Notes: a model not told the origin generated them from the letters alone. DNA of 64,000 nt from Bacillota bacterium (GCA_049323895.1 JBMOKT010000012.1:24926-88925); one strand, 5' to 3'. Positions 10,286-39,550 are shown, numbered from the stretch's first letter. A program made the numbers and translations.

Positions 10286-11395
10286 TTACTGTGATTTGCC
10301 CCTACAGAGTATTGGCAGTTCTTCAACAACCTCTTCATTATCTACCAAATAGATTTTGTCATAAAGATTACAGGTGGGACAAACATGATTAGGTATTATT
10401 TCTACTTTCTCACCAATGGCAAGCCTTTGATTTAGTTCTTGATTATTTATTAAGCCGTGTTCATCATAAAGTTTGTTCAAGCGTATTTCTTCAGTACCTT
10501 TTAATAAACCAAACCCTGGCGTATAACAAATTCCCTTGTTACGAGCAAATGCAGTTAGAGCCTTTACTCCTGTATCCAATACAATTCTTTCCTTAGTAGG
10601 CTTGCTGACAACTGTACCTAATACAGTAACAGCACATTTACTATAGTCTCCTATTGCGTGTCCCTGTGCAGCATCCATTAAAACATACGTGCCGGGCCTT
10701 ATCTCAGTAATACCTGGCAGTATTTGCCCATGCATGATAGAGGGGGTAGCCCCTATACTAACTACCTCTATACTAATACCTGCGTCCCTGATTAATTTTG
10801 CAGCAAGTAAGGTTTCTTCTTGACTTTTTTTGAATAGTTCCGCACATACCTGTGGATTATCAGCACCATAGGTATGTCCTTCATGGGAAAAAATACCCCT
10901 CAACTTAACATTAGGAAGGCTTACTATATATTGAGCCAATTCAACAACTTCCGGTCCTGGAAGCAAACCCGATCTCTCTTCTCCCGTTTCTATCTCGATT
11001 GAGACTTCTATGGGTTTCTCTTCATTTTCGAATATTTGAGATAACAGTGTTACCTGTTCTCTATTATCAACACCTACTGCAACCTTTACTTTTTTTGCAA
11101 CCTCTCTTAATCTTTCCATTTTCTTTACACCGTAGATTTCGTTGGCTATAAATATATCGTCTAAGCCTGCTTCCGCCATGACTTCTGCTTCCCCTACCTT
11201 TGCTACCGTTATGCCTTTAGCGCCAGCTTCCACTTGCAACTTAGCTATGGCTGGTGTTCTGTGGGTTTTTGTATGGGGTCGCAGGTTTACGCCAAACCTG
11301 TCTGCTTTTTTCTGCATTTCCTTTATATTGCTTTCCATCACATTTTTTTGGACAATCAGTGCTGGTGTATCTAAATCCCACATGGTTTTCCTCAT
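10286..11395 (-). CDS. Fold-type III PLP enzyme (DSD1/D-threo-hydroxyaspartate dehydratase/D-threonine aldolase family)
   Basis: LDTPAL, RPHTKTH (PLP Lys), EIRPG, DEHG, PNHVCPT. Confidence 0.85.
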   Translation of the reverse strand: MRKTMWDLDTPALIVQKNVMESNIKEMQKKADRFGVNLRPHTKTHRTPAIAKLQVEAGAKGITVAKVGEAEVMAEAGLDDIFIANEIYGVKKMERLREVAKKVKVAVGVDNREQVTLLSQIFENEEKPIEVSIEIETGEERSGLLPGPEVVELAQYIVSLPNVKLRGIFSHEGHTYGADNPQVCAELFKKSQEETLLAAKLIRDAGISIEVVSIGATPSIMHGQILPGITEIRPGTYVLMDAAQGHAIGDYSKCAVTVLGTVVSKPTKERIVLDTGVKALTAFARNKGICYTPGFGLLKGTEEIRLNKLYDEHGLINNQELNQRLAIGEKVEIIPNHVCPTCNLYDKIYLVDNEEVVEELPILCRGKSQ

Positions 11396-12045
11396 AATAA
11401 AACTCCTCCTGCTGCTTCGTTATTTGCTAGTACAGTATCTTTGATAATATCGGCACATCTCACCTGATTAAAAATTCCACAATAACAGAAATTAGCCAGC
11501 TTTATAGCAGCTTCATCTTCCGTTAATCTTCCTTTGGTTACTTGGTCAATCATATGCTCCACAAATTTTGGGGGAATCATATGGTGACCGCACATAGTAG
11601 TTATAGAAAGTGTTGCGTCGTCAGGCAAGTTATCTTTTTTACCCCAGACACCTAGAGAATAGTTAATGGAATGGGGCATAACTCCCGCTTCTTTGCAAGC
11701 AGGCAAAACTTCTTCCAATACTCCTGTCACAACTACCGACTGACCTAAGTCTTTTTCTTTTATGCGTTTTAGAAACTCTACCACCTGTTCTCTTTTGGTA
11801 AAAACCCCTCTAATTCTTGATTTATCAGTAATTTTTTCTTGAATTTCTTCAACAGAGTATTGTGTTTTTGGTCCAGTCTTAACATCACCCCAGTTTTCAG
11901 AGCCAACAGCTTCTGCTGCAGCAATAAATTCCAAAGCCTTGGGTTTAATATTCACGTCATTTACGCCTTTTGTCTGATACATAAACCAGTTAAAATCTTT
12001 TTTTTGAGACTCTATTGGACCGGAACGGTGTAATGAATGTGTCAT
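11392..12045 (-). CDS. Uncharacterised His/Cys-motif protein, module copy 1
   Basis: MTHSLHR N-terminus, TMCGH, CYCGIFN; paralogs at 35579 and 38145. Confidence 0.85.
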   Translation of the reverse strand: MTHSLHRSGPIESQKKDFNWFMYQTKGVNDVNIKPKALEFIAAAEAVGSENWGDVKTGPKTQYSVEEIQEKITDKSRIRGVFTKREQVVEFLKRIKEKDLGQSVVVTGVLEEVLPACKEAGVMPHSINYSLGVWGKKDNLPDDATLSITTMCGHHMIPPKFVEHMIDQVTKGRLTEDEAAIKLANFCYCGIFNQVRCADIIKDTVLANNEAAGGVLL

Positions 12046-12057
12046 GTAATTTACCCC

Positions 12058-12792
12058 CTATGCTAATGATAAAGGTTTGCCCAAACCAACATTTACTTTA
12101 CCCCGGTGCGGTCTGGCAATGCCTAATTCATCCAAACAATCCAAAGTTTTGTTTTCTCCATTTTCATCCACCCGCAGGATTAAACCCAGAGAAAATACTG
12201 TATCAATTTCCTTTTCTACCTTTTGCAAGGCTTCTAATATTTGTTTCAATTCATTTTCCTGGCACTTTGCCTCTACAATAACTGAAAGCAAATGGTAGTT
12301 TAAGCATTCCTCAACAAGTTTGCCGGCTTTTAAGTCGGGTATTAAGGCTGCTAACGGGGTATGTTCAGCAGGAGCTAATTTTGCACCTGCTGCAGCAATA
12401 GCCATTGCTACTTTTTCGGCATCCCTTAAATAAACCCCCATCCCTGGTCTACCCATATCTATTGCTATACCGACTTCACCTTTTTTAATCCGTCCCGATA
12501 CATCATTAGTTTTAACCTCTTCAGTACCTCTTCCTGTCACACCTGTAACACCATGATTTTCTACTGGATCACTAATAACATGTTGGAATTGCTTATAAAA
12601 GTTATTTAATTCAATAGGTTCAATGGCACCCTTGGGACAAACTTTCTGGCGCAGACAGACATAACACTCTGTACATCTATCTTGGTCAATATAACATTTT
12701 TTTTCATCGTTGGAATAGAAAATAGCATCCACAGTACAATACTTATGACAAATTTTGCATCCTGTACATAAATCGGCATTTATTATTGTCAT
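12058..12792 (-). CDS. 2x[4Fe-4S] ferredoxin-domain protein with unknown C-terminal domain, module copy 1
   Basis: CTGCKICHKYC and CTECYVC...CP; GRGTEEVKTNDV. Confidence 0.85.
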   Translation of the reverse strand: MTIINADLCTGCKICHKYCTVDAIFYSNDEKKCYIDQDRCTECYVCLRQKVCPKGAIEPIELNNFYKQFQHVISDPVENHGVTGVTGRGTEEVKTNDVSGRIKKGEVGIAIDMGRPGMGVYLRDAEKVAMAIAAAGAKLAPAEHTPLAALIPDLKAGKLVEECLNYHLLSVIVEAKCQENELKQILEALQKVEKEIDTVFSLGLILRVDENGENKTLDCLDELGIARPHRGKVNVGLGKPLSLA

Positions 12793-12845
12793 TATTAGAT
12801 AGCTCCTTTCAGATAAAATCCCTGAAAAAATTCAGGGATAAAAAT

Positions 12846-14354
12846 TTATGCACTAATATTTGTATTTATATCAACAGGCTTTTTAAGGTTTTGATATGTA
12901 GTTCCAACAAAGGCAAGAATAGCAAGAATTATTAATGTAGTACTAATACCTGAGTTAAATAGTGCATCGTACCAGTTCCCTTTAGAAATAAGCAAGGCCC
13001 GTCGTAAATTTGCTTCCATAATAAACCCCAAAACGAAACCTAGTACTGTTGCTGTGTAAGGAATGGAAAACTTTTTCATTAGATAACCCAATAAACCGAA
13101 ACCGATAGTAACAAGGATACTAAAGGTTTCTCCACTATAAGCAAAAGAACCGGTGAAAACAAGGGCCATTATACTTGCAAATAAAACAGGTTTAGAAATT
13201 TTAGTAACCTTGATGGCAAGCTTAACAATGAAATAACCCATAATTAACATAAAAATGTTAGCAACCAACAAAGAAATAAAAATACTATAAGGTATTTCCG
13301 GCTGTTTGGTGAAAAGCAGAGGACCAGGCTGAACGTTATGAATCATTAGGGCCCCAAGCATTATTGCCGTTGAGTTAGAACCAGGTATACCTAAAGCTAA
13401 TAACGGAACCAAGGCACCACCGGTAACAGCGTTATTGGCAGCTTCCGGAGCGGCAACCCCTTTGATATTTCCTTTACCAAAGGTATCACCATCTTTACAC
13501 CATCTTTTTGCTTCACTATAAGCTACCCAACAGGCAGTGGATGCACCTACACCAGGCATGGCGCCAATAAGAACACCCATTAAGGAGCTAACAAATGAAA
13601 CGGGCAAAAATGTCTTAATAATATCCCAGCCCGGAAGGCTAGTATCAACCTTACCAACAATATTAAATTCAGAATCACCAGTTAATTCCTGAGCTTGACT
13701 TAAGAGTTCTGAGACGGCAAAAAGACCCATCATTAAGGCAATCATTTCAAAGCCATCTGCAAGATGCAAAGAACCAAGAGTATATCGGGGAATACCATTC
13801 ATAGGGTCATATCCTATTGTGGCTACGAAAATACCAAGAGCCCCTGCCAATAGCCCTTTAAATACATTACGACCCCCCAGCGAGCAAATCAAGGTTAAAC
13901 CGGCAATAGCTAAAGCAAAGTATTCAGAAGGACCAAATTTTAAAGCGACAGTTGAAAGTGGTATTGCTACAAACATTAAAACTAGGGCACTTAGAAATCC
14001 ACCTGTACATGATGAAATCAAAGAAGTCCCCAATGCGATACCTGCTTTACCCTGTTTATTTAGTTCATAACCATCAATAGTAGTTGCAGCAGCAGCAGTA
14101 GTACCAGGTGTACCAATCAAAATAGCAGGAATAGAACCGCCGTATTCGCCGCCACAGTATACCCCTGCCAACAATAATAGTGCATTAACAGGTTCCATTC
14201 CCCAGGTAAAAGGAAGGAGCAAGGCCATAGCGATAGTAGCATTAATACCGGGAATCATGCCGCCGATAATCCCCCACAGCACCCCAAGAGCTATGGCTGC
14301 TAAGGAGGACCAGTCAAATACATTTTCAACACCAATAAGTAAACCTTCTAACAT
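12846..14354 (-). CDS. tctA: Tripartite tricarboxylate transporter large permease
   Basis: GGSIPAILIGTPGT, DGY, APEAANNA, LGIPGS, PGPLLF. Confidence 0.92.
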   Translation of the reverse strand: MLEGLLIGVENVFDWSSLAAIALGVLWGIIGGMIPGINATIAMALLLPFTWGMEPVNALLLLAGVYCGGEYGGSIPAILIGTPGTTAAAATTIDGYELNKQGKAGIALGTSLISSCTGGFLSALVLMFVAIPLSTVALKFGPSEYFALAIAGLTLICSLGGRNVFKGLLAGALGIFVATIGYDPMNGIPRYTLGSLHLADGFEMIALMMGLFAVSELLSQAQELTGDSEFNIVGKVDTSLPGWDIIKTFLPVSFVSSLMGVLIGAMPGVGASTACWVAYSEAKRWCKDGDTFGKGNIKGVAAPEAANNAVTGGALVPLLALGIPGSNSTAIMLGALMIHNVQPGPLLFTKQPEIPYSIFISLLVANIFMLIMGYFIVKLAIKVTKISKPVLFASIMALVFTGSFAYSGETFSILVTIGFGLLGYLMKKFSIPYTATVLGFVLGFIMEANLRRALLISKGNWYDALFNSGISTTLIILAILAFVGTTYQNLKKPVDINTNISA

Positions 14355-14364
14355 TTTTAACCTC

Positions 14365-14856
14365 CTAGCCTAAGAATATTTCAAAAAGCCCTAGCGGTAA
14401 CTTAACCTGTAAACCTAAAGCAAATACAGTATAAAGGATTGCTGTCATAGTAACACTTATTTTGACCAATGAAGAAATTTTCCTAATCTGAACTATCCAA
14501 AGTAATGCTGCAATTAAAATTGGTGTCATTATTAAATAACCGATAGTATTCAAAAGGGCTGCATATAGTACACTTACAAGACAGGAATAAATAACCGCTT
14601 TATATTCTGCAAAAAGATCCTGCACTTTCTTTTTTTTGGGTCTTTCGAGTAAAGCTTTATTGGCATACAACGACCCACCCACAAGCACTATCCCGATTAT
14701 GATCATTATATAAGCCATTAAATCAGGTAAAGCCGTTGGTCCAGCAGGGTCGATAGACATTACTATTTGTCCTTCAATCATCTCGCCCTGTGCGATTATG
14801 AGCAAACCAAGGAGAATTGACACTATGCCTACAATATAATCATTGTGTTTGAACAC
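14365..14856 (-). CDS. tctB: Tripartite tricarboxylate transporter small permease
   Basis: 4-5 TM segments, GP..P motif, C-terminal L.V.LP.G; lies between tctC and tctA. Confidence 0.85.
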   Translation of the reverse strand: MFKHNDYIVGIVSILLGLLIIAQGEMIEGQIVMSIDPAGPTALPDLMAYIMIIIGIVLVGGSLYANKALLERPKKKKVQDLFAEYKAVIYSCLVSVLYAALLNTIGYLIMTPILIAALLWIVQIRKISSLVKISVTMTAILYTVFALGLQVKLPLGLFEIFLG

Positions 14857-14913: not shown

Positions 14914-15900
14914 CTATTTCATAAATGCTCTAATTTGCTTGTCTTGTTCTTCCATAACTTTTACAAAATCAGCCGGCTTTTTGAATACAACATTTAGTTT
15001 CAAGTTTTCATAATATTGCTTAAATCCTGGGTCTTGCAAAGCAGCTTCACAAGCTTTTATCCATTGTTCAACAACTGCATCTGGTGTGTCAGGATGAGCT
15101 ACTACGCCTCTAAATTTCTCAACCAGGAAATTATAACCTTTATCATCAACGGTTGGAATATCCACGCCGGATACTTTATTGAATGCTATTAAAGCTTTTA
15201 ATTCTCCGGCATCTAATTGAGCTACAGCTTCACCGTATTCGCCAATAGCTCCGTCAACATGTCCGCCAAGCACAGCTACTGTAGCATCTGCTCCGCCTTC
15301 AAAGGGAACAACATTAATATTTATGTTGGCTTTTTCTTGTAAAAGCTTAGCAGCAACAAAGCCTAATTCTCCTGGAATACCACCGGCAATGTTAAATTTG
15401 CCAGGGTTTGCTTGGGCATCCTTCACAAAATCTTCCCAATTGTCCCAAGGAGCATCACTTCTAACAAATAATATCATGGGGTCAACAAACATCATGGCAA
15501 CAGGCTTGAAGCTCTTGTAGTCAAATTCCATTTTGTTCATAATTGGAGCAGTAATTATTGTCGAAGATACGCCCAAGAACGTGTGACCATCTTTGGCATC
15601 TAAAGCAGCTTTCCAAGCAGTAGCACCGGCTGCACCAGGCTTATTGTCAACTATAACGGATTTTCCAAAACCTGGTTCCAAAGCTTTAGCTAATGCTCTT
15701 AAAAACATATCTCCACCGGAACCTGCTTTAGAATGGTAAATCAAAGAAATGTCTTTTGTTGGCCAAGCTGCTGCTTTGGGTTCCTCTTTTTTAGGTTCTT
15801 CCTTGGGAGCTTCCTGTTTTGCACCACAGCCTACAACTGCAACCATAACAAATACCAAACATAATGCTAATAGAATCTTTACCTTTTTGGGTCTGAACAT
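14914..15900 (-). CDS. tctC: Tripartite tricarboxylate transporter substrate-binding lipoprotein
   Basis: Lipobox VVGC; WP.K.I, AGSGGD, NKPGAAG, VPFEGG, LGGHVD. Confidence 0.9.
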   Translation of the reverse strand: MFRPKKVKILLALCLVFVMVAVVGCGAKQEAPKEEPKKEEPKAAAWPTKDISLIYHSKAGSGGDMFLRALAKALEPGFGKSVIVDNKPGAAGATAWKAALDAKDGHTFLGVSSTIITAPIMNKMEFDYKSFKPVAMMFVDPMILFVRSDAPWDNWEDFVKDAQANPGKFNIAGGIPGELGFVAAKLLQEKANININVVPFEGGADATVAVLGGHVDGAIGEYGEAVAQLDAGELKALIAFNKVSGVDIPTVDDKGYNFLVEKFRGVVAHPDTPDAVVEQWIKACEAALQDPGFKQYYENLKLNVVFKKPADFVKVMEEQDKQIRAFMK

Positions 15901-15919: not shown

Positions 15920-16420
15920 TTATTTTAATTGTTTTTCTAAATACGGTATTAATCCACCTAACTCAATATACTCCACTAAAAAATCAGGCGGCTTAATAAA
16001 CTCGTATTTTTTCCCAGTAGTTAAATTTGTTATTATGCCTTGAGTATAGTTAATCTCAATTTCATCACCCTGGTTGACATCTAAAACAAAATGGGGTGCT
16101 GTGATGGCAGGTAGTCCAACATTATAGCAGTTTCGGTAAAAGATACGGGCAAATGATTTTGCTACTACCGCACCAATTTGAGCACATTTGATTGCCTGTG
16201 GTGCCTGCTCACGGCTGGAACCATAACCAATATTCTCCCCGGCAACAATAATGTCGCCTGGTTGAATCTTAGAGGAAAATTCAGGATCAGCCCCTTTCAT
16301 GCAATTAGCTGCCAACTCCTGTGGTTCCACATGGGTCATATAGCGGGAAGGTAAAATATGGTCTGTGCTTATATTGTCACCGAACTTCCAAACTTTTCCC
16401 TTTAAAATATAGTCAGCCAT
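15920..16420 (-). CDS. LeuD/HacB-type hydro-lyase small subunit (pair 1)
   Basis: [28 protein letters not shown]. Confidence 0.9.
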   Translation of the reverse strand: MADYILKGKVWKFGDNISTDHILPSRYMTHVEPQELAANCMKGADPEFSSKIQPGDIIVAGENIGYGSSREQAPQAIKCAQIGAVVAKSFARIFYRNCYNVGLPAITAPHFVLDVNQGDEIEINYTQGIITNLTTGKKYEFIKPPDFLVEYIELGGLIPYLEKQLK

Positions 16421-16421
16421 A

Positions 16422-17681
16422 TTAATTGCTACCTCCCAATTTACGAGGATCGGTAATTTTACCCATTACCGCTGATGCAGCAACTGTACTGGCGCCTGCT
16501 AAATATATTAATCCGCCGGGACCCATCCTGCCATCCATATTTCTGGTCGTGGTTGAAATGCATGTTTCGTTTGGTGCCAATACTCCAACTTCATATCCTC
16601 CACAGGTACCGCATGCTGGGGAGCTAAAGATGGCCCCTGCTTCTACCAATGCAGTAATCAGACCTAATCGCGCTGCTTTTTCAACTACCCTGGAACTATT
16701 TGGTACTATAATAAATCTAACATTGGGATGCACTTTTCTTCCTTTTAACACCTGGCATGCTGCTTCTAAATCATGAAGAAATGCACCAGAACAAGACCCT
16801 AAAGTAGCCTGGTTAATTTCAACACCTTCAACCTGATTAACCACAACACCATTGGTCGGCAGCCCGGGAGTCGCCACAATAGGCTCTAATTCCGAAACAT
16901 TAAAATGCAATTCTGATGCATAAACAGCACCATCATCTGCTTGAAAAATCTTTTCAGTTTGTTCTGTTCCGTTAATATAATTAAGGGTTTTCTCATCTAC
17001 TGGCATTATTGCATTTTTTACTCCCATTTCCAGACACATAATAGTAATTGCCATTCTTTCTTCAACAGTCAAGGAAGCTACCAAAGGACCGGTTATCTCC
17101 ACTGCAGCATAATTTAAAAAGGACGGACCAAAGTGTTTTAGTAAAAAAAGTGCAACGTCCTTAGGTGTAATATATGGTCCTAGCTTTCCATCAAGGAAAA
17201 TCTTTACGGTTTCAGGAACTTGAAGCCAAATACTGCCCGTGGCTAAAACAGCAGCCATTTCTGTTGAACCGATACCAGTGGCCAAACATCCAAAGATACC
17301 AAGACCAACTGTATGGGAATCAGTGCCGAGTATTATTTTTCCAGGTCGCGCATAACCCTCTTCTGCAACTACCGGATGTGAAACACCCCTGCCAACTTCC
17401 GATACCTTAATATTATATTTTTTAGCAAAATCTCTAATGTTTTGATGATGCTGTGCAGCTCTTAAGGTTGTTGAAGGAGAATGATGATCCAAAACAAACA
17501 TTACTTTTGAGCTATCCCAGACACTGGCGTTAGGTAACCGTGAAAATTGCCTGATAGCTATTGGTGCATTATTATCATGGAAAAAGGCAAAATCTACCGG
17601 AACTTGTACTATCTGTCCTGGTTTAACCTGTGGCAAATTCGCTTTATCGGCAATTATTTTTTCCGTTACTGTCATACCCAT
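16422..17681 (-). CDS. LeuC/HacA-type [4Fe-4S] hydro-lyase large subunit (pair 1)
   Basis: MGMTVTEKII, DSHT, GSC, CGTC, RNMDGRMG. Confidence 0.9.
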   Translation of the reverse strand: MGMTVTEKIIADKANLPQVKPGQIVQVPVDFAFFHDNNAPIAIRQFSRLPNASVWDSSKVMFVLDHHSPSTTLRAAQHHQNIRDFAKKYNIKVSEVGRGVSHPVVAEEGYARPGKIILGTDSHTVGLGIFGCLATGIGSTEMAAVLATGSIWLQVPETVKIFLDGKLGPYITPKDVALFLLKHFGPSFLNYAAVEITGPLVASLTVEERMAITIMCLEMGVKNAIMPVDEKTLNYINGTEQTEKIFQADDGAVYASELHFNVSELEPIVATPGLPTNGVVVNQVEGVEINQATLGSCSGAFLHDLEAACQVLKGRKVHPNVRFIIVPNSSRVVEKAARLGLITALVEAGAIFSSPACGTCGGYEVGVLAPNETCISTTTRNMDGRMGPGGLIYLAGASTVAASAVMGKITDPRKLGGSN

Positions 17682-17765
17682 ATAGTTACCTCCACTCCCT
17701 TTATAGAAACTATCTGGCCTCCCTCCTTAATTGTATTTGGGAAGATTTACAACAATAAATATAAA

Positions 17766-17781
17766 TGCAAATTCTATGCCA
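17766..17781 (-). promoter_or_regulatory. Sigma-54 -24/-12 promoter for the LeuCD1-tctCBA-FeS module-PLP-BhcD operon
   Basis: Minus strand TGGCATAGAATTTGCA (GG-N10-GC), 85 bp upstream of the start. Confidence 0.85.
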
Positions 17782-17889
17782 ATATATTCCTCTTTAAAAT
17801 ATTCAGAAAATTGCTTAAAAAATAATATGAAAAATCTTTATTTCTAACCTATATGGTGCCTAATCTACTATTTTTAACCTAAAAAACAC

Positions 17890-18972: not shown

Positions 18973-18994
18973 TAAATTCGACCGCCTTTCGTAG

Positions 18995-19510
18995 TTAGTT
19001 TTTATTTAAATTCAATTCCTTTTTAGTGAAAGGAATAATACCGCCTTCGGCAAAAATATCCAACATTACTTTATGGGGAAGGTCAAATTCATATTCTTTC
19101 CCTTGGGTATGATTAATTACTTTTCCCTCCTGTAAGTTAATAGTAACTTTATCACTTTCACTAAACTCATCTACTTCTTGCAGTGTTATAGCAAATAGTC
19201 CTATATTTATTGCATTTCGATAAAAGATTCTGGCAAAGGATTTTGCAATAACTGCACTAATACCCGAGAACTTTATTGCTTTAGGGGCATGCTCTCGGCT
19301 GGAACCTGTTCCAAAATTCTTGCCGGCAACAATAATATCTCCTATCTCAACCTTGCTTTTAAATTGTGGAGCTACTTCTTCAAAAACATGGGATGCAAGT
19401 TCGTCGGGATCAGTTAAGACTACATATTTGCCAGGAATTATTTGACCGGTATCAACATCATCGCCAAACTTAAACACCTTTCCACCTAAGCTTTTTTTCA
19501 TTTGTTCCAC
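18995..19510 (-). CDS. LeuD/HacB-type small subunit (pair 2)
   Basis: [26 protein letters not shown]. Confidence 0.9.
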
Positions 19511-19512
19511 CT

Positions 19513-20772: not shown

Positions 20773-20819
20773 GGTGTCTCTCTCCTTTAACCTGTTATAT
20801 TTACACGTTTTTATATAGT

Positions 20820-21002: not shown

Positions 21003-21040
21003 TGATTATCGTTAATATAAAGAAAATTGTGGAGGTATGT

Positions 21041-30459: not shown

Positions 30460-30475
30460 TGCAAAAATAATGCCA
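30460..30475 (-). promoter_or_regulatory. Sigma-54 promoter for the UxaA-larA-enolase-aconitase-LeuCD3 operon
   Basis: Minus strand TGGCATTATTTTTGCA (GG-N10-GC). Confidence 0.85.
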
Positions 30476-30645: not shown

Positions 30646-30684
30646 AAAAAATGCTTTGGCAGTAACTCTGCCAAAGCATTTTTT
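30646..30684 (-). terminator. Intrinsic terminator after the DapA-family gene
   Basis: AAAAAATGCTTTGGCAG-taact-CTGCCAAAGCATTTTTT. Confidence 0.85.
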
Positions 30685-31573: not shown

Positions 31574-31613
31574 ATAGGTAACCCCCTTATAATGGTTGCC
31601 AATCTCATTTGCT

Positions 31614-32342
31614 TCATCTACCTTCCTGCTGATTATGTTGACTGCTTGAAACAACTGTTTCAATAGCCTCCAAATGATTAAGCATAGCTTGTTGTGCTGC
31701 GTGAGGGTCCTTGTTTCTAATGGCTTGTAAGATAGCCTTATGACCTTCAACAGAATCTAATTTTCTCCCGGGAAGCTGAACTGTAACCTTTCTGGCTTCG
31801 GTAAGGATATCCCACAAGGACTCCATTATACGGAATAAAACCTTAGAACCGGTACTTTTGGCAAGAATCATGTGGAATCTAAGATTCGCCTCCGATAAGT
31901 TGTCAGAGTTTGCCATACCACTTGCCACTAATTCATCCGAACGGTAAACAGCCTCTTCCATTTTAAGCAGGTCTTCAGCAGTGGCATTTTCTGCCGCCCA
32001 GGCAGCAGCATGGGTTTCCAATAGTTTCCTAACCCTAACAATATCTAATAGGTCGTCTTCCCGCTGAACCAATATTGGTGAAATTTGGTTAATAATATAA
32101 CCTGCATCTAATTGTTCTACATAAATCCCCAGACCTCTTTTTATTTTTAAAAAGCCTAAACCAGAGAGAATTTTTACTGCTTCCCTAATGGAAGTCCTGC
32201 TTACATTAAACATATCACATAACTCATTTTCCGATGGGAGCTTATCCCCGGGTTTTAATTTACCGGAAAAAATCATATCTTTTATTTGACCAACAATTTT
32301 GTCAGATAAGCTTATGTGGGTTTCAATGACAGGTTTAAACAT
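31614..32342 (-). CDS. GntR/FadR family transcriptional regulator
   Basis: LKPGDKLPSE.EL...VSRTSIREA; FCD domain FH...H. Confidence 0.92.
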   Translation of the reverse strand: MFKPVIETHISLSDKIVGQIKDMIFSGKLKPGDKLPSENELCDMFNVSRTSIREAVKILSGLGFLKIKRGLGIYVEQLDAGYIINQISPILVQREDDLLDIVRVRKLLETHAAAWAAENATAEDLLKMEEAVYRSDELVASGMANSDNLSEANLRFHMILAKSTGSKVLFRIMESLWDILTEARKVTVQLPGRKLDSVEGHKAILQAIRNKDPHAAQQAMLNHLEAIETVVSSSQHNQQEGR

Positions 32343-32405: not shown

Positions 32406-33920
32406 TTAAGCAGCAATTTTTTTTGTTTTACCTTTTTGCAGCATATTCTTAATCACTGGTATAAATATGGCTCCAAAAGCAATAATCATGAGAATTGTAG
32501 AAATTGGTCTGGCAAAGAAAATGCCAAAACTTCCTTCAGATAAAATAAGCGACTGTCTCATGGATGTTTCTAATAATTGACCCAAAACAAGTGCTAGTAC
32601 CAGTGGCGCTCCGGGATATTTAAGCTTTTTCATGAAATATCCAACAAAGCCAAAACCAATGGTAAGATAAACATCAAACATGGAATTGTTTAAGCTATAG
32701 GCGCCCACCAGGATAAATGCCAAAACAACAGCATTTAGGGTAGCTTTGGGAACCTGTAAAATACGGACGAAAACCGGTACAAACAGTAGTACCATTAATA
32801 TTAAAATTACATTACCCACATACATGCTGGCTATTAGACCCCAAACAAAATCAGGGTTTCTCTCGAAAAGCATTGGTCCTGGTCTTAAACCAAACATCAT
32901 TAATGCACCCATTAAGATGGCTGTACTGGCTGAACCTGGTACACCAAGAGTTAATAACGGTACAAAGGCACCGACAGAGGCTGCATTATTTGCACATTCA
33001 GGTGCAGCTACCCCTTCAATTGCCCCTTTGCCAAATTCTTCGGGATTTTTAGATGCCTTTTTGGCCATTCCATAGGAGATAAATGAGGCAATTGTTGCCC
33101 CGGCACCAGGCAACATTCCGATAAAGAAACCAACCGCTGTTCCTCTGGCAATAGTCCATTTGGATCTAGCCCAATCCATTGCTGATGGAAACAGTTTTCT
33201 CCAACGGAGGTCAGCATTTTTAAGACCATCAATATTCACTTTTTCTTCCGAAGCCAGTATTATTTCAGCAATACCAAAAACACCCATAGCCACTGGAATA
33301 AAATCAATACCGCTGAACAATTCTATCATACCAAAGGTAAAACGAGGCATGCCCGTAACTAAATCTAAGCCAATTATTGCTAAGAATAAACCGACTAAAG
33401 CACTAATGAAACCTTTGACAGGATTTTCACCCGTCATTCCGGCTAGTGTTGTTAACCCAAGAACCATTAGGGCAAAATATTCTGGAGGACCAAAACTTAG
33501 GGCAGCCTTAGCTAAGGCTGGTGCTAAAAAAGTAAAAGCAATTACGGAAACTGTTCCGCCGATAAAGGAGCTAAATGCAGCCATACCCATGGCAGGACCT
33601 GCTTTGCCCTGTTGTGCCAAAGGGTAGCCATCCAAAGTAGTCATAACCGCCGCGGAATCCCCAGGAGTATTAATGAGGATAGAAGTTATAGAACCCCCGT
33701 ACATAGCACCATAATAGATTCCCGCTAACATAATAATTCCCGAAACAGGGTCTGACCCAAAGGTGATTGGCAGCAGTACTGCCAAACCGGCAGAAGGTCC
33801 CAAACCTGGCAGTGCACCGATAATGGTTCCAGAAACAACTCCTATTAAACAGTAGAGGATATTCATTGGAGTAATAGCTACTGTAAATCCGTATAAAAGA
33901 TTCGTAAGTGTTTCAAACAT
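32406..33920 (-). CDS. tctA: Tripartite tricarboxylate transporter large permease (second system)
   Basis: GALPGLGP, YGGSITSILINTPG, LDGY, APECANNA, PGPMLF. Confidence 0.92.
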   Translation of the reverse strand: MFETLTNLLYGFTVAITPMNILYCLIGVVSGTIIGALPGLGPSAGLAVLLPITFGSDPVSGIIMLAGIYYGAMYGGSITSILINTPGDSAAVMTTLDGYPLAQQGKAGPAMGMAAFSSFIGGTVSVIAFTFLAPALAKAALSFGPPEYFALMVLGLTTLAGMTGENPVKGFISALVGLFLAIIGLDLVTGMPRFTFGMIELFSGIDFIPVAMGVFGIAEIILASEEKVNIDGLKNADLRWRKLFPSAMDWARSKWTIARGTAVGFFIGMLPGAGATIASFISYGMAKKASKNPEEFGKGAIEGVAAPECANNAASVGAFVPLLTLGVPGSASTAILMGALMMFGLRPGPMLFERNPDFVWGLIASMYVGNVILILMVLLFVPVFVRILQVPKATLNAVVLAFILVGAYSLNNSMFDVYLTIGFGFVGYFMKKLKYPGAPLVLALVLGQLLETSMRQSLILSEGSFGIFFARPISTILMIIAFGAIFIPVIKNMLQKGKTKKIAA

Positions 33921-33936: not shown

Positions 33937-34395
33937 CTATAACCCAAAGAAGCCTTTGGGGAATGGAACATCTAAACCTATCCGGAATATTAAATAAAGA
34001 ACCAGAGGCAGAATAACCATCATACCGATGGAAGTAAAAATTTTACGTTCCTCTGCCAAAAAGGTAACTAAAAAGCCAGCTAATAAGCCCATGGAAATAA
34101 TCATACCTAAGAAATTTACTAGCAGCCCTGCAATTACTGCACTGCCAATTAAGGTAATCAGCAGCTTAAACCCTTCTTTTGAAAACACTTCCGTTTCTGT
34201 TTTAGAACCGGCTTTAAAAGTTTGGTATAACAATATAACTGAAGTTAAAGCTAAAAGGAGACCAACACAAAAAGGTACAAATCCCGGACCCGGACCTTCA
34301 TCTCCCCACCAAAGTTCCAAGGAAACTCCGCTAATGAGGATATAAATAGAAAGGGCTAATAACATTGCACCAGCTATCCTATCTGCTTTTTTCAC
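33937..34395 (-). CDS. tctB: Tripartite tricarboxylate transporter small permease (second system)
   Basis: GPGPGFVP, C-terminal LDVPFPKG. Confidence 0.85.
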   Translation of the reverse strand: MKKADRIAGAMLLALSIYILISGVSLELWWGDEGPGPGFVPFCVGLLLALTSVILLYQTFKAGSKTETEVFSKEGFKLLITLIGSAVIAGLLVNFLGMIISMGLLAGFLVTFLAEERKIFTSIGMMVILPLVLYLIFRIGLDVPFPKGFFGL

Positions 34396-34476: not shown

Positions 34477-35505
34477 CTATTTTGCAGCACCAATTTGTTT
34501 AAAGATATCTGCATACATATCGCTTAATTCTACTATAGCTTTGCTAAACTCTTCGGAACCCAAGAAACGCGGAGTGATGGAGTTTTTCTTAATATAATCT
34601 TCCTGCCATGCACCACTCTCGTGCAGCTTTCTAAGCACGTCTTCCCAATACTTAACTGCCTCTGCAGGAGCATCTTTTGGTAAAACAACTCCTCTGAACT
34701 GAGCCAAACTTGCGTTTACTCCTTCTTCGATCAAAGTTGGTACATTATCAAAGCCCGGAATTCTTTCCTTACTTGCTACTACTATTGCTCTTGCCTTGCC
34801 GCCTTCAACCTGGTTTAACGCTTCACCAGGGTTAGCCCAAACTAGGTCTACGTGTCCACCTAAAAGGGCTGTCATTGCTTGACCACCACTCTCAAAAGGA
34901 ACATATTTTAATTCTATACCCGCCTTGTCCTGAAGTACGCGATACATAACAGCGTCATCGGAAGTACCACTTGTACCACCAACTGCCAGACTCTTAGGCT
35001 TAGCTTTTGATTTTTCAATTACTTGTTTTACACTGGTAATTTCAGAATCTTCCCTAACAAATAAAGCTAAAGTATCCATTGCCAACCCTGCAACAGGTGT
35101 GAAATCCTTATAGGAAACAGGTGAATTTCCTAAAAGAGGCGCTGTGTAGAAACTGGAACTAACTGATGCCATATAATATGGATTACCTTTTTTTTCTGCT
35201 ACATAAGCATAACCAATGGATCCACTGCCGCCTGGCTTGTTAACAACGTTAATAGGCTGGCTTACCCATTTGCTGTCAGTAATAACTTTTACCATTGATC
35301 TAGCCATGATGTCACTACCACCACCGGCACCGAAAGGAACTATGAACTCGATAGCTCTTTCAGGATAAGCAGGTTTTGGTGGTTCAGCCTTTGGTTGTTC
35401 CTTAGGAGTTTCCTTAGGTGCTGATGAGCAGCCTCCTACCAAAGTGACTACTAACATAACCGCCAAAAGTAAAGCCAATATCTTTCTCATTTTCATAAAA
35501 TCCAC
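34477..35505 (-). CDS. tctC: Tripartite tricarboxylate transporter substrate-binding lipoprotein (second system)
   Basis: Lipobox VGGC; YPERAIEFIVPFGAGGGSD, NKPGGSG, LLGGHVD. Confidence 0.9.
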   Translation of the reverse strand: MDFMKMRKILALLLAVMLVVTLVGGCSSAPKETPKEQPKAEPPKPAYPERAIEFIVPFGAGGGSDIMARSMVKVITDSKWVSQPINVVNKPGGSGSIGYAYVAEKKGNPYYMASVSSSFYTAPLLGNSPVSYKDFTPVAGLAMDTLALFVREDSEITSVKQVIEKSKAKPKSLAVGGTSGTSDDAVMYRVLQDKAGIELKYVPFESGGQAMTALLGGHVDLVWANPGEALNQVEGGKARAIVVASKERIPGFDNVPTLIEEGVNASLAQFRGVVLPKDAPAEAVKYWEDVLRKLHESGAWQEDYIKKNSITPRFLGSEEFSKAIVELSDMYADIFKQIGAAK

Positions 35506-35578: not shown

Positions 35579-36226
35579 TTAGGCTTTATCTGCTTCTGCT
35601 TCTTGAGGTACATATTTTTCCAGAAGTTTTTCTGCTCTATCTGGGTTATAGATACCGCACACACAGGGGTGTGATATCTTAACAGCAGCATCTTTAACGG
35701 TCATACGACCTTTCTTTACTTTCTCAATACAATCTTCAACTAATCCGGAGGAAATCAGGCCATGTCCGCACATAGTTACTAACTCCAATACCTCTTCTGA
35801 AGGCAGTTTTTCAACGTTACCCCACACTTCTAAAGAAAGGTTTACGCAATGGGGCTTGATATCCAATTCCCGGGCAATATCCAATACTTCATCGGTCAAT
35901 CCGCTAACAGTAACAGACAAGCCCTGGTCTAATTCCACAATTCTTTTCAATACCTCTTTCATCTTTTCCTTAGAAGAAAAGGCACATCTAACTCTAGGAA
36001 CATCATTTAATGCATCGCGTATTTCCTGAATGTCAACACCTGATAAAATTGTCCCTGTGTCATACGACCCGATATTACTGGGTCCTAAATCAAATACTTC
36101 ATCTAATACCTTTCTCATCTTATCCTTGGAACCCTCATGGTTAAATCCATAAGCTGAAGTGACCAGTAAAACGTAATCATCTTTTAAACTTTCTTCAGTT
36201 CCTCTGCGGTGCAGTGAATGTGTCAT
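35579..36226 (-). CDS. Uncharacterised His/Cys-motif protein, module copy 2
   Basis: MTHSLHRRG, TMCGH, CVCGIYN. Confidence 0.85.
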   Translation of the reverse strand: MTHSLHRRGTEESLKDDYVLLVTSAYGFNHEGSKDKMRKVLDEVFDLGPSNIGSYDTGTILSGVDIQEIRDALNDVPRVRCAFSSKEKMKEVLKRIVELDQGLSVTVSGLTDEVLDIARELDIKPHCVNLSLEVWGNVEKLPSEEVLELVTMCGHGLISSGLVEDCIEKVKKGRMTVKDAAVKISHPCVCGIYNPDRAEKLLEKYVPQEAEADKA

Positions 36227-36238: not shown

Positions 36239-36967
36239 CTATTTTGTCACTAAAGGTCTGCCAAGACCTAAGTTAACTTTAGAATTTTTACGTACCCTTA
36301 TTCCCATTTCTTCCAATACAGGAAGGATAGGCAATGAACCATCTTCGCTAAAGCGATATATCATATCCAGGGAAAAAACAGTGTCTAATTCACTGGCAAC
36401 TTTTTTGATGACATCCATCACCGGCACTAATTGGGATTCAGGGATACCAAACTCAATAATACAGGAAACCATCTTTTCATTCATATATTCCGGTTTGATT
36501 GTCCCTTTTTCCCTGTCAGCCATTAAATGGGTTAGCGGATTCATCTCTTCAAATTCAATCCCCAGCTTCCCTAGGGCAGTAGTCATTTTCTGTACTTGTT
36601 CCATATTTGTGCCTAAGCAAGGACGACCCATTTCAATAGCAATTCCGATTTGTCCACGGACAACCCTGCCTGTAACATCATTTGTTTTTACTTCCTCAGT
36701 ACCTCTTCCAGGAATTTTAGTTACTGAGTGGGTAGTCATAGGGTCACTAAAGAACTTCCTCGCAGCTCTTGTTCCCTCATAGAGTCCTGGCTGCTCAAAA
36801 AATGCCTTTTTGGGACACCTAACAACTCTAATACGGCTGCAGTTTCCGCATTCAAAACATGCATCTTCATCAATACTAGCTTTTTTATCAACTACTGTAA
36901 TCGCATTGGCAGGGCAATAAGGCACACATATACCACAGCCGCTGCATTTTTCTTGATCAATTCTCAT
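36239..36967 (-). CDS. 2x[4Fe-4S] protein, module copy 2
   Basis: CSGCGICVPYCP, CFECGNC...CP, GRGTEEVKTNDV, EMGRP. Confidence 0.85.
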   Translation of the reverse strand: MRIDQEKCSGCGICVPYCPANAITVVDKKASIDEDACFECGNCSRIRVVRCPKKAFFEQPGLYEGTRAARKFFSDPMTTHSVTKIPGRGTEEVKTNDVTGRVVRGQIGIAIEMGRPCLGTNMEQVQKMTTALGKLGIEFEEMNPLTHLMADREKGTIKPEYMNEKMVSCIIEFGIPESQLVPVMDVIKKVASELDTVFSLDMIYRFSEDGSLPILPVLEEMGIRVRKNSKVNLGLGRPLVTK

Positions 36968-36987: not shown

Positions 36988-38052
36988 TTAGATAATTGAC
37001 TCCGGTAAAGGAACCGAAAATTTAACTGACAGCTGTTCAAATTTTTCTAATAATTCTTTGCCTAGGGAAATACCCCTTGCATAATTGGTTTTGGCTAACT
37101 CCCTTTCCCTTTCCCCAGGCATTCTTATTTCATCATAACCATATGCTTTGGGGAGACTCTTCATTTCACCAATCATGGCATCCATTCTGGATCTAATTTC
37201 CTCTAAGTCTAAAAATCCCTGAGGATTTATCGCAATCATTAGATGCCCCACATTACTTGGGTCTAAGGAGTCACTGTATTGCCAGATGACACCTTTGCCA
37301 TAACCTGCCCCGGTTAGTAAGCCCGACAACATTTCAATTGCCATTGCCAGAGCAGCACCTTTATGTGCTCCCATGGGCAGAATGCATCCTTTTAAGGCTT
37401 CTTTAGCATCGGCAGTGGGTTTACCCTCACTGTCCAAGGCCCAGTCCGGACCAATAGGTTCGCCCTCTTGAGCAGCCTTTATAATTTTGCCCCGTGCAAC
37501 TATACTGGTTGCCATATCGATTGAAATTGGTCCAAAATCCGATCCTCCCGGAATAGATATTGCCAAGGGATTTGTTCCAAAATAGGCCTCCCGTCCTCCC
37601 CAAGGCGGGATAGCAGGTGGTCCATTTGCAATTACAATACCTACTAAATTTTCTTCTAGCGCCATATTGGCATAATAGGAAGCAGCACTGAAATGATTGC
37701 TGTTTTTAACACCTACTGCAGCAATACCAAACTCTTTTGCCTTCTTTATTACAGTTTTCATTGCCTCATATGCTGCTACATGACCCAGTCCATTATCCGC
37801 ATCAACTATGGCCAGAGCAGGAAAATTAAAAACAGTCTTAATAACAGGCTCTTTGTTTATCAATCCCTTTTCCAGCCTCTCCAAATAGACAGGCAGCCTG
37901 GTCAATCCATGGGACCCAACACCCTCCAAATCTGCTTGGATAAGGACCTTGACCACTATTTGGGCATCTTCCTTTTTTATTCCCGAATTAATGAGCAGCT
38001 TTTCTGAAAAGTCAATTAATTCCGGAACCGAAAACAAATTATTACTCTTCAT
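36988..38052 (-). CDS. Ldh_2 family (malate/L-lactate/sulfolactate/ureidoglycolate dehydrogenase-like) oxidoreductase
   Basis: GVGSHG, DADNGLG, NSNHF, GTNPLA, DMATS, HKG, RMPG. Confidence 0.9.
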   Translation of the reverse strand: MKSNNLFSVPELIDFSEKLLINSGIKKEDAQIVVKVLIQADLEGVGSHGLTRLPVYLERLEKGLINKEPVIKTVFNFPALAIVDADNGLGHVAAYEAMKTVIKKAKEFGIAAVGVKNSNHFSAASYYANMALEENLVGIVIANGPPAIPPWGGREAYFGTNPLAISIPGGSDFGPISIDMATSIVARGKIIKAAQEGEPIGPDWALDSEGKPTADAKEALKGCILPMGAHKGAALAMAIEMLSGLLTGAGYGKGVIWQYSDSLDPSNVGHLMIAINPQGFLDLEEIRSRMDAMIGEMKSLPKAYGYDEIRMPGERERELAKTNYARGISLGKELLEKFEQLSVKFSVPLPESII

Positions 38053-38144
38053 TTATATCCCACCAGTTTATTTAATTAAAGAAGGATAAGGAAAGGGCAG
38101 CGGGGAACAAATCCCTAACCCTATCCTCCCAGGGGGTTAACTAG

Positions 38145-38801
38145 TTATTCAGAAGCAGCTGCAGCTTCTTTCTCTGCTGCTTTTCCAACTGTCTCGGTTA
38201 TAATTTCTGCACATCTGACCTGGTTAAAAATACCGCAATAGCAGAAGTTAGCCAGTTTTATAGCTGCTTCATCCTCTGTTAAACGTCCTTTTCTAACTTG
38301 ATCAAACATATGCTCTACGAATTTAGGTGGAATCATATGGTGCCCACACATAGTAGTAATAGATAGTGTAGTGTCATCAGGCAAATTGTCTTTTTTACCC
38401 CAAACTCCTAGTGAATAATTAATTGAATGAGGCTTTACCCCAGCTTCTTCACAAGCAGGTAAAACTTCACTTAATACTCCTGTTATTACAACTGACTGGT
38501 CTAAATCCTTTGCCTTGATTTGCTTTAAAAATTCAACAACCTGTTCCTTTTTAGTAAATACACCCCTAATCCGGGACTTATCTATAATGCGTTCTTTGAT
38601 ATACTCGCTAGGATACTGGGTGATAGGTCCAGTCTTAACATCACCCCAATTTTCTGAACCCAAGGCCTCTGCAACTGCGATAAACTCTAATGCCTTGACC
38701 TTAATATTGGTATCATTAACACCTTTTGTTTGATACATAAACCAGTTAAAGTCCTTTTTCTGTGACTCAATGGAACCTGAGCGATGCAGTGAATGGGTCA
38801 C
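38145..38801 (-). CDS. Uncharacterised His/Cys-motif protein, module copy 3
   Basis: GTG start; THSLHRSG, TMCGHH, CYCGIFN; near-identical to copy 1. Confidence 0.85.
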   Translation of the reverse strand: MTHSLHRSGSIESQKKDFNWFMYQTKGVNDTNIKVKALEFIAVAEALGSENWGDVKTGPITQYPSEYIKERIIDKSRIRGVFTKKEQVVEFLKQIKAKDLDQSVVITGVLSEVLPACEEAGVKPHSINYSLGVWGKKDNLPDDTTLSITTMCGHHMIPPKFVEHMFDQVRKGRLTEDEAAIKLANFCYCGIFNQVRCAEIITETVGKAAEKEAAAASE

Positions 38802-38815
38802 TTAACCTTCCTCCT

Positions 38816-39550
38816 TTACGCTAATGATAATGGTTTGCCAAGACCCACATTTACCTTTCCGCGGTAGGGCTGGGGTATTCCCAGTTCATCAAGGCATTCC
38901 AGGGCTTTTGTTTGTCCCTTTTCATCTGTTCTAAGTATTAAACCTAAGGAAAAGACAGTATCTATTTCCTTTTCTACCTTCTGTAAAGCTTTAAGTATGG
39001 TAGGCAGTTCCGCTTCTTTGCATTTTGCTTCGACGATAACAGATAATAGATGGTAATCCAAGCAATCTTCCTCTAATTTTCCCGTTTTTAAATCAGGCAT
39101 CAATGCTGCAAGGGGGGTGTGCTCTGCAGGGGCTAATTCGGCACCAACAGCTGCAATTGCCATAGCTACCTTTTCGGCATCCCTTAAAAATACTCCCATG
39201 CCGGGACGCCCCATATCAATTGCTATCCCTACTTCTCCCTTTTTTGTACGACCGGAAACATCATTTGTCTTTACCTCTTCCGTTCCCCTGCCGCTGACAC
39301 CGGTTACCCCGTGGCTTTCCACCGGATCGCTGATAACATGCTGGAACTGCTTATAAAAAGTATCTAACTCAATAGGCAGTATTGCTCCTTTGGGGCAAAC
39401 CTTCTGCCGAAGGCAAACATAGCACTCTGTACACCTTTGTTGGTCAATCCAGCACTTTTTATCCTCAGCGGAGTAATGAATAGCATCAACTGTACAATAT
39501 TTGTTACAAATTTTACAGCCATTGCACAAATCCTTATTGATAATTGTCAT
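38816..39550 (-). CDS. 2x[4Fe-4S] protein, module copy 3
   Basis: CNGCKICNKYC, CTECYVC...CP, GRGTEEVKTNDV; ATG 39550 after AAGGAG aligns with the copy 1 start. Confidence 0.85.
   Translation of the reverse strand: MTIINKDLCNGCKICNKYCTVDAIHYSAEDKKCWIDQQRCTECYVCLRQKVCPKGAILPIELDTFYKQFQHVISDPVESHGVTGVSGRGTEEVKTNDVSGRTKKGEVGIAIDMGRPGMGVFLRDAEKVAMAIAAVGAELAPAEHTPLAALMPDLKTGKLEEDCLDYHLLSVIVEAKCKEAELPTILKALQKVEKEIDTVFSLGLILRTDEKGQTKALECLDELGIPQPYRGKVNVGLGKPLSLA

Follow-up and report, generated by a model that had tools for sequence, protein, structure and literature searches.

A conserved two-gene iron–sulfur module of carboxylate operons: a new protein family and candidate heterodimeric oxidoreductase

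Introduction

A pair of adjacent genes, referred to here as A and B, occurs three times in a stretch of 64,000 nucleotides of DNA from a Bacillota bacterium (GCA_049323895.1 JBMOKT010000012.1:24926-88925; this whole stretch is called the window). Gene A encodes a protein in which a ferredoxin domain is joined to a C-terminal domain specific to the family, and gene B encodes a protein that belongs to no known family. The two genes keep company in other genomes, and their products are predicted to form a complex, the interface of which is built from their most conserved residues. As a protein family and as a predicted architecture, the pair is rated as categorically new. The reading that we favour, at a probability of about one half, is that A and B form an obligate heterodimeric iron–sulfur (Fe–S) oxidoreductase with a metal site at the subunit interface, which acts on an imported di- or tricarboxylate.

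Three gene pairs in the window, five in the genome

All three pairs in the window are encoded on the minus strand. Pair 1 consists of A1 (12058-12792; 244 amino acids), in which a 2x[4Fe-4S] ferredoxin domain (residues 1-60) is followed by the family-specific C-terminal domain, and B1 (11392-12045; 217 amino acids), which has the motifs C152-G-H154, C187-x-C189-G..N193 and an N-terminal T-H-S-L-H-R, all of them invariant. Pair 3 is closely related to pair 1: A3 (38816-39550) and B3 (38145-38801, with a GTG start) each have 85% identity to their counterpart. The open reading frame (ORF) of A3 is open to 39604, so that a start there is possible, but homology favours 39550. Pair 2 is the divergent one, as A2 (36239-36967) has 42% identity to A1, and B2 (35579-36226) has 38% identity to B1. 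The gap between A and B is 12 base pairs in pairs 1 and 2, and 14 base pairs in pair 3.

An earlier reading of the window, made from its sequence alone (the sequence-only reading), had described three copies of this ordered gene pair, 12-14 base pairs apart, and had pointed out that copy 2 is far more divergent yet keeps every listed motif. The ORFs were found as described and the motifs are present in all three copies, so that the observation of the gene pairs is confirmed. The number of copies is correct for the window; the genome has five A+B pairs in total, of which two lie outside the window, on contigs C33 and C32.

Protein A: a ferredoxin domain with a family-specific extension

The first 60 residues of A contain two CxxCxxCxxxC(P) motifs and belong to the ferredoxin domain of the Pfam Fer4 clan: Fer4, Fer4_7 and related models match A only at residues 3-58. 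In a model of A1 folded alone with AlphaFold 2 (AF2; confidence score pLDDT 85.1), this domain superposes on known ferredoxin domains with VIA-align Z scores of 8.4-9.6 (root-mean-square deviation 1.4-2.0 Å over 55-63 residues), and it is the only part of A that scored above Z 6 in a wide fold search. Among the domains on which residues 1-60 superpose are the 2x[4Fe-4S] domains of AprB (of adenosine 5′-phosphosulfate reductase), of PorD/OorD (of 2-oxoacid:ferredoxin oxidoreductases) and of the C-terminus of dihydropyrimidine dehydrogenase. A is like these oxidoreductases in that its ferredoxin domain is joined to what would be a catalytic partner, but differs from them in that their catalytic subunits have no match in residues 62-244 of A or anywhere in B.

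In residues 62-244 of A and in B, the Pfam and NCBIfam scans found no thiamine pyrophosphate (TPP), flavin, molybdopterin or siroheme domain. Searches of PDB sequences with A returned ferredoxins alone, with no credible match to the C-terminal domain from either single sequences or profiles. The fold of the C-terminal domain was compared as part of the whole A model, and a new fold is not claimed for it.

Several of the source names attached to homologs of A are ruled out by its domain content. For “indolepyruvate / 2-oxoacid:ferredoxin oxidoreductase alpha”, there is neither a POR_N nor a TPP_enzyme_C domain, the 244 residues of A having Fer4-type matches only (at E<=1); for “DUF362”, a name found on homologs of A2, none of A1, A2 and A3 matches PF04015 at E<=1; and for “dihydropyrimidine dehydrogenase PreA”, the matches are to the ferredoxin domain and not to the flavin mononucleotide barrel of the dihydroorotate-dehydrogenase kind. 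Apparent forms of A without a ferredoxin domain (196 amino acids) begin within that domain and are truncated gene calls. The C-terminal domain of A and the N-terminal half of B were also considered as paralogs of each other, for which the hhalign probability was 3.6% and not significant; one local alignment, of residues 178-236 of A to residues 84-132 of B, is a lead only.

Protein B: a protein of no known family

Above chance level, the Pfam and NCBIfam scans (E<=1) gave no family for B; its weak matches to FeoC, SUS_N and TPR_14 (E 0.009-0.2) are regarded as chance. The AF2 model of B, made from an alignment of 104 sequences, has a pLDDT of 95.9 and a predicted template-modelling score of 0.91. 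Foldseek gave no match at E<=0.001 for this protein or for A, and in a wide VIA-align search none of 48,161 representative PDB chains matched B at Z>=5. The best score (Z 4.7) was a generic alpha+beta match to the N-terminal half; the C-terminal half, which bears the conserved Cys and His residues, had no match in the fold search. PDB sequence and profile searches with B gave nothing credible, and two leads from the searches with A and B are unverified: XPA (E 0.011, 26 residues) and the “putative glycerate kinase” 2b8n (E 0.009, 55 residues). The ESM Atlas contained only clusters named “hypothetical protein”.

Thus, for the C-terminal domain of A and for B, searches of Pfam (2025), NCBIfam (release 20, 2026), the PDB (to 2026), the ESM Atlas and the literature, the last mostly outside subscription journals, yielded neither a family model nor a solved structure, and no publication. 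The sequence-only reading had recognized no characterized enzyme with these motifs, and this is borne out by Pfam, NCBIfam, PDB sequences and profiles, Foldseek, VIA-align and the ESM Atlas.

A and B as partners

Among 401 sampled genomes of the phylum, 30 have B and 29 have the C-terminal domain of A, and every one of the 29 belongs to the 30. The single genome with B only is 84% complete, and its B is a fragment at the end of a contig. There can be up to 7-8 copies of the pair per genome, and the copy numbers of A and B track each other (e.g., 7/8, 7/8, 6/6 and 5/5).

Gene order was followed in two surveys, the first of 33 pairs and the second of 80 loci of the subfamily to which copies 1 and 3 belong. 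In the first survey, every one of the 33 B genes abuts an A gene, and in 32 of them the order is A then B. In the second, A is directly upstream of 104 of the 114 B genes. The ten misses comprise four B genes cut off from their neighbours by contig ends, two with gaps of 235-287 nucleotides, one in-frame A-B ORF (L135) and three extra B genes. Thus, the co-occurrence of A and B extends from the window to other genomes. A third B of normal length (two A to three B) is found in some Thermodesulfobacteriota (L078, 9709-10356; L100, 9642-10289; L104, 9716-10336).

The amino acid identities of A and of B are strongly correlated (r=0.972 over 129 pairs), and none of 500 label shuffles reached this value. 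As shared ancestry inflates such a correlation, the comparison of paralogs from the same locus (r=0.966, n=35) is the more telling figure. The correlation implies that the pair duplicates and diverges as a unit. There are also natural fusions: of A with B (P0387), and of B with a Fer4_11 polyferredoxin domain (P0312).

Conservation and the predicted interface

The family is large. At 90% identity there are 812 clusters of homologs for B1, 686 for the C-terminal domain of A1 and 3068 for that of A2, and an exhaustive search with B gave 475 representatives at 50% identity. Across hundreds of homologs, the source names are “hypothetical protein” or are derived from the ferredoxin domain. Within the copy-1/3 subfamily, identities are 57-95% across records from Bacillota, Thermodesulfobacteriota, Synergistota, Myxococcota, Spirochaetota and Chloroflexota. 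Cultivable carriers named among the sources of homologs include Desulfitobacterium hafniense, Sporolituus thermophilus, Acetonema longum and Anaerosolibacter carboniphilus.

In 147 B genes, C152, G153, H154 and C187 are present in all 147, C189 and N193 in 146, H3 and R7 in 145, H6 in 144 and H125 in 142; the invariant Cys residues of B are exactly three. In 142 A genes, all eight Cys residues of the ferredoxin domain are present in 139 (the three misses are truncated ORFs), as is K232, and the segments G87-R-G-T90 and G114-R-P116 together with E92, K94 and E174 are present in 141. In addition to putative ligands, there are invariant polar residues: R7, N193, S103 and S130 in B, and R88, E91, E92, K94, N96, R115, E174 and K232 in A. 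Thus, the motifs that had been picked out from three copies in one window are near-invariant in other genomes, far beyond chance.

When A1 and B1 were modelled together, the interface score ipSAE was 0.94, 0.93 and 0.93, compared with 0.00 for the best of three controls; this score is the model's own confidence, and was obtained from custom alignments. Of 80 solved complexes, 58 attain the mark used for complexes, as do 2 of 110 mismatched pairs. The models have 251-266 contacts, agree between runs in at least 90% of them, and have pLDDT values of 90-91 for the partners. That the pair passed from the memory of the model is unlikely, because no similar complex is known. The prediction supports, without proving, the binding of A1 and B1 to each other that the proposed heterodimer had implied.

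In the predicted complex, the interface of A is made up of residues 16-22 and 43-49 (beside the ligands of one cluster), 75-77, 91-99, 114-119, 196-212 and the C-terminal tail (228-242), and that of B is made up of residues 2-7, 99-111, 122-137, 152, 154-161, 186 and 188-189. C152, H154, C189, H3, H6 and H125 of B are all in the predicted interface and face A. Conserved positions are enriched there: 13 of 21 for B compared with 7.0 expected (p=0.004), and 28 of 46 for the C-terminal domain of A compared with 16.1 expected (p=3e-5). Thus, the predicted interface is built by the invariant motifs of both proteins, including H3, H6 and R7 at the N-terminus of B. The most conserved loops of A have the lowest confidence when A is folded alone (pLDDT 60-71 and 53-59), as would be expected of segments that become ordered only upon binding B.

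Gene neighbourhoods in other genomes

In the first survey, a carboxylate transporter lies at most five genes away from 24 of the 33 pairs: a tripartite tricarboxylate transporter (TTT) in 19, a tripartite ATP-independent periplasmic (TRAP) transporter in three, and a 2HCT and a CitMHS transporter in one each. About 22 of the 33 are near an NAD(P) dehydrogenase (both figures are hand tallies). The neighbours counted in the 80 loci were TctA (51), TctC (40), LeuC-like (20), a GntR/FCD regulator (19), a protein of about 490 amino acids named U492 (18), a Pyr_redox_2 flavoprotein (17), a DUF1932/NAD_binding_2 dehydrogenase (16), Iso_dh (15), DHDPS (14) and Fer4_11 (13). Overall, the pair is mainly found with TTT and TRAP transporters, LeuCD-type hydro-lyases, and dehydrogenases of the isocitrate dehydrogenase family and other NAD(P)-dependent families.

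Six architectures can be distinguished. Architecture I (AcnL-AcnS-TctCBA-A-B-PLP-OCD) is that of copy 1 in the window and also of L058, L060 and L064; architecture II (GlyK-u185-A-B-Ldh2-A-B-TctCBA-GntR-DHDPS) is that of copies 3 and 2. In architecture III, a LysR gene is divergent from A-B-IsoDH-TctCBA; architecture IV is IsoDH-AcnL-AcnS-A-B-M29-TctCBA; architecture V is TctBA-Fer4_11-U492-flavoprotein-A-B-A-B-dehydrogenase-DHDPS; and architecture VI consists of GntR-TctCBA-A-B only.

Redox cassettes of the kind seen in architecture V are found in about 13-18 of the 80 loci, and were seen in Thermodesulfobacteriota. The first 90 residues of U492 match Ni-CO dehydrogenases (E 9e-18), and the protein is a truncated CooS-like one. 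In L040 and L050, a Fer4_11 protein and a CooS-like protein are encoded with A, B and a Pyr_redox_2 protein, and A-B is flanked by the CooS-like gene on one side and the flavoprotein gene on the other. Architecture V and these two loci resemble the known CooS/CooF/FNOR clusters of Ni-CO dehydrogenases and include the pair as a possible accessory, but A and B are homologous to none of the three proteins, and most pairs, including all five of this genome, are without such neighbours. None of the CooS, CooF and FNOR families is present among the 38 ORFs of the window that were scanned (1-47 kb), and the sole CooS-like match in the genome is a frame of 678 amino acids, of the full-length type, on another contig and not near any A-B pair. 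In the accessible text of two publications on such clusters the pair is not described: Inoue et al. 2019 (PMC6344411) refer to unnamed “functionally unknown proteins” in CooS/FNOR contexts, and an eLife 2026 survey (PMC13056359) lumps neighbours of carbon monoxide dehydrogenases together as “FeS proteins”.

The truncated CooS-like proteins form a family of about 490-520 amino acids, with a weak or absent Pfam Prismane match, encoded beside CooF-like, Pyr_redox_2 and A-B genes. They occur in L071, L074, L078, L081, L084, L086, L092, L095, L099, L100, L103-L105 and L136, as well as in L040 (7198-8715) and L050 (6411-7976).

Some settings are of other kinds. In L041 and L043, A-B is beside genes for an amidohydrolase, an M42 peptidase, AllG (an oxamate carbamoyltransferase subunit) and an FdrA-like protein with a CoA-ligase fold; this setting is of the ureide/oxamate type, unlike the transporter-linked ones. 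In L052 (5816-7084, plus strand) there is an Ldh_2-family ORF of 422 amino acids with a Fer4_7 match in its N-terminal extension (residues 54-80), which is either a ferredoxin-fused Ldh_2 protein or an ORF with an over-extended start.

The proposed oxidoreductase

If A-B is an oxidoreductase of the kind that we favour, the 2x[4Fe-4S] domain of A would carry electrons to or from an external partner, which would be ferredoxin or, in some lineages, the neighbouring NAD(P)H flavoprotein together with the CooF-like polyferredoxin. The C-terminal domain of A and B would wrap round each other, placing the catalytic site at their interface. B would contribute Cys152, His154, Cys187 and Cys189, together with His3, His6, Arg7 and His125, and A would contribute its invariant polar loops (GRGTEE-K-ND, GRP and the K-x-N-x-GLG tail). 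The Cys/His set would most likely hold a third Fe–S cluster in which a coordination site is open or has a ligand other than Cys, or else another metal centre. The substrate, entering via the adjacent TTT or TRAP transporter, would be a small di- or tricarboxylate of the hydroxy, oxo, amino or unsaturated kind, and the LeuCD-type hydro-lyases and NAD(P) dehydrogenases may take over the product or supply the substrate. The five paralogs of this genome may serve different substrates or different steps. Several substrates suggested by neighbouring genes were considered (hydroxyaspartate/iminosuccinate, pyrroline-2-carboxylate, tartrate/glycerate, aldarates and aconitate/tricarballylate), and none of them is supported enough to be proposed.

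Redox chemistry is favoured over plain dehydration because of the invariant ferredoxin domain, the fusion of B to a polyferredoxin domain, and the flavoprotein and polyferredoxin neighbours. An enzyme is favoured over a simple electron wire because of the many invariant polar residues that are not ligands. Thus, the suggestion of the sequence-only reading that the module represents a new heterodimeric Fe–S protein family of carboxylate operons is supported; as for its chemistry, a cluster or metal held by B with A as the electron relay, we infer the metal site, the redox catalysis and the class of substrate from the evidence described above.

A further step, which we put forward tentatively and regard as appreciably less probable, is that the pair is a new class of metalloenzyme. 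In such an enzyme, a previously undescribed cluster would be held by three Cys residues, several His residues and the protein's own N-terminus, between subunits of new fold, and would be supplied by a two-cluster wire; it would catalyse ferredoxin- or NAD(P)H-driven redox conversion of di- or tricarboxylates for which no enzyme of anaerobes is known, in some lineages together with truncated CooS-like proteins. If this is true, the enzyme could, for example, remove a hydroxyl or amino group by reduction, or convert saturated and unsaturated acids into each other (aconitate and tricarballylate being one such pair).

Several points weigh against the proposed oxidoreductase. Six architectures for one subfamily are hard to square with a single substrate, the diversity of neighbours would also fit a generic electron-transfer accessory, and some operons consist of a transporter and A-B only. 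The three extra B genes follow A-B-A-B runs without an A of their own. The confidence in the complex is the model's own. Zinc in a structural role could occupy the Cys3His set with its CxC motif. Finally, the best fold scores of the C-terminal domain of A (Z 5.5-5.9) and those of the N-terminal half of B (Z 4.0-4.7) are to ACT/ferredoxin-like domains, which are often regulatory.

Alternative explanations

Aconitase and LeuCD, L-serine dehydratase, class I fumarase and the reductive enzymes IspG and IspH have a [4Fe-4S] cluster held by three Cys residues, with an iron that binds the substrate; IspG and IspH require a supply of electrons, and such a supply is at hand for A-B. The alternative that survives best, while being unlikely, starts from this chemistry: A-B would be a non-redox hydro-lyase of the aconitase, serine-dehydratase or class-I-fumarase kind, in which an open iron on the three Cys residues of B binds a hydroxy-carboxylate and the clusters of A are structural or keep the catalytic cluster reduced. 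The count of three invariant Cys residues fits this, as does the company of the pair, with operons rich in such chemistry (LeuCD-like proteins, PrpD, GD_AH, DHDPS aldolases and glycerate kinase); architecture VI would fit a single step to a central metabolite. This is the dehydration option of the sequence-only reading. However, two of the three Cys residues of B are in a CxC motif, there are several invariant His residues, and the site is predicted to be at an interface, all of which differ from those enzymes. Neither A nor B matches Aconitase, SDH_alpha/beta, Fumerase or similar models in Pfam or NCBIfam at E<=1, and with these, Foldseek and VIA-align, neither protein resembled any hydro-lyase family or other three-Cys Fe–S enzyme in sequence or fold. 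We know of no Fe–S hydro-lyase with a dedicated 2x[4Fe-4S] domain, whereas A has one, with its eight Cys residues kept in 139 of 142 genes; the fusion of B to a polyferredoxin domain, and the many loci in which A-B has a polyferredoxin on one side and an NAD(P)H flavoprotein on the other, also argue against a non-redox role.

Somewhat less probable again is a role in electron transfer alone. As a heterodimer with three clusters and the character of a ferredoxin, A-B would then connect the neighbouring dehydrogenases or CooS-like proteins with ferredoxin or a flavoprotein. The dehydrogenases near the pair are very diverse (MDR-ADH, Ldh_2, PdxA, Iso_dh, KARI, 3-HIBDH-like and OCD), as might be expected of the neighbours of such an adaptor; the integration of A-B in cassettes with CooF-like, CooS-like and flavoprotein genes, and its many copies per genome, are consistent with the same role. 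However, these dehydrogenases are of NAD(P)-dependent families that need no Fe–S partner, and the invariant polar residues that are not ligands suggest a pocket for a small molecule. Furthermore, architecture VI is without any partner enzyme, and the genome of the window is without a CooS-like gene near its pairs.

There is a small chance that A-B belongs to an enzyme family which has already been characterized and was not recognized by the searches, for example one published recently or in a subscription journal. The literature search was largely outside such journals, and the unnamed proteins mentioned in the accessible text of PMC6344411 could be counted in favour of this explanation. Against it, Pfam, NCBIfam, PDB sequences and folds, and the ESM Atlas gave no match, the literature search found nothing, and the homologs are named in their hundreds as hypothetical proteins or after the ferredoxin domain only.

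Least probable of all is a sensor of metabolites or redox state, or a regulatory accessory of TTT/TRAP transporters, with ligand bound by ACT-like domains and redox state sensed by the Fe–S clusters: the C-terminal domain of A and the N-terminal half of B resemble only ACT/ferredoxin-like beta-alpha-beta-beta-alpha-beta folds (1wuu, 3c1m, 5m27 and 1u0s), and in L052 and L053 A-B is embedded in the transporter operon, with TctB on one side and TctA on the other, but the fold scores are low (Z<6, and no higher than 4.7 for B) and in the range of a very common arrangement, the C-terminal half of B is unmatched, there is no Pfam ACT match and no DNA-binding or signalling domain, the operons have regulators of their own (GntR/FCD, LysR and sigma-54 activators), and about 9 of 33 pairs (hand tally) have no transporter nearby.

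Organization of the window

The unit that contains copy 1 is ordered LeuC-like, LeuD-like, TctC, TctB, TctA, A1, B1, fold-type-III pyridoxal 5′-phosphate (PLP) enzyme and OCD/mu-crystallin enzyme, all on the minus strand. Its first genes encode an aconitase-family hydro-lyase of the LeuCD type (large subunit 16422-17681, small subunit 15920-16420). These are followed by TTT transporter 1 (TctC 14914-15900, TctB 14365-14856 and TctA 12846-14354), directly upstream of A1 and identified by Pfam matches for TctA (8e-146), TctB (9e-17) and TctC (8e-39). Downstream of B1 are the PLP enzyme (Ala_racemase_N + D-ser_dehydrat; 10286-11395) and the OCD/mu-crystallin NAD(P) enzyme (9282-10268), and these two genes also follow B in L058, L060 and L109. 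A gene for a sigma-54 enhancer-binding protein (PAS + AAA+; 7115-9262, plus strand) is convergent on the unit, and a sigma-54 activator is in the equivalent position in L058, L060 and L062. Upstream of the unit there is a candidate sigma-54 promoter (TGGCAT-N5-TTGCA; 17766-17781, minus strand), intergenic and with one mismatch.

Further intergenic sites of the same type, each with one mismatch, are at 20820-20835 (minus strand), 20987-21002 (plus strand) and 30460-30475 (minus strand), where they precede the LeuCD-IsoDH unit, PrpD and the GD_AH dehydratase gene, respectively. A scan of the whole window for sigma-54 promoters gave 34 matches with 31.4 expected, which is not an enrichment, and the four intergenic sites are candidates only.

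Copies 3 and 2 are in a single unit on the minus strand: glycerate kinase, a protein of 186 amino acids, A3, B3, Ldh_2, A2, B2, TctCBA, GntR/FCD and DHDPS. Upstream of A3 are the genes for glycerate kinase (40690-41832) and, directly before A3, for the 186-amino-acid protein (39812-40372), which has no Pfam family and could either belong to the copy-3 type of module as an additional component or regulate it. The order GlyK-u185-A-B is conserved in L059, L067 and L069. Between pairs 3 and 2 is an NAD(P) dehydrogenase of the Ldh_2 family (36988-38052; Pfam 1.7e-122), and the order A-B-Ldh2-A-B is also found in L059, L063 and L067, and in L069 without the second B. TTT transporter 2 (TctC 34477-35505, TctB 33937-34395 and TctA 32406-33920) is directly downstream of B2, and is followed by a GntR/FCD regulator (31614-32342) and a DHDPS-family aldolase/lyase (30683-31750), as it is in L059, L063 and L067. 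As listed, these last two ORFs overlap by 137 nucleotides; the Pfam match of the DHDPS protein starts at residue 64, so that its true start is probably further downstream.

In the two pairs outside the window, copy 4 is followed by TctC, PdxA, TctB and TctA, and copy 5 stands alone.

The region 15920-28947 of the window is a dense island of organic-acid genes. It has three LeuC/LeuD-like pairs (16422-17681/15920-16420, 19513-20772/18995-19510 and 23382-24641/22878-23381), a fused aconitase-family protein of 658 amino acids (24649-26625), Iso_dh (17890-18972), PrpD (21002-22390, plus strand), a C_GCAxxG_C_C protein (22433-22891), an MR_MLE enzyme of the enolase superfamily (26591-27682) and a LarA-like protein (27679-28947). 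Elsewhere in the window, a protein of 549 amino acids with a partial Glu_synthase match only (4558-6207, minus strand) adjoins a LUD-domain protein (6426-7178, minus strand).

Significance

The module spans hundreds to thousands of sequence clusters in several phyla, including bacteria of the gut and the rumen. A and B are among the more conserved protein pairs seen in this work, although no family model, solved structure or published function was found for them. The analysis defines both subunits, their interface and a set of candidate ligand residues, and it draws attention to the adjacent solute-binding proteins, the ligands of which would name the substrate. As the pair is found in the organic-acid operons of anaerobes, it is probably the sign of a reaction that is missing from their known carboxylate metabolism, and it may reveal a new type of metal centre.

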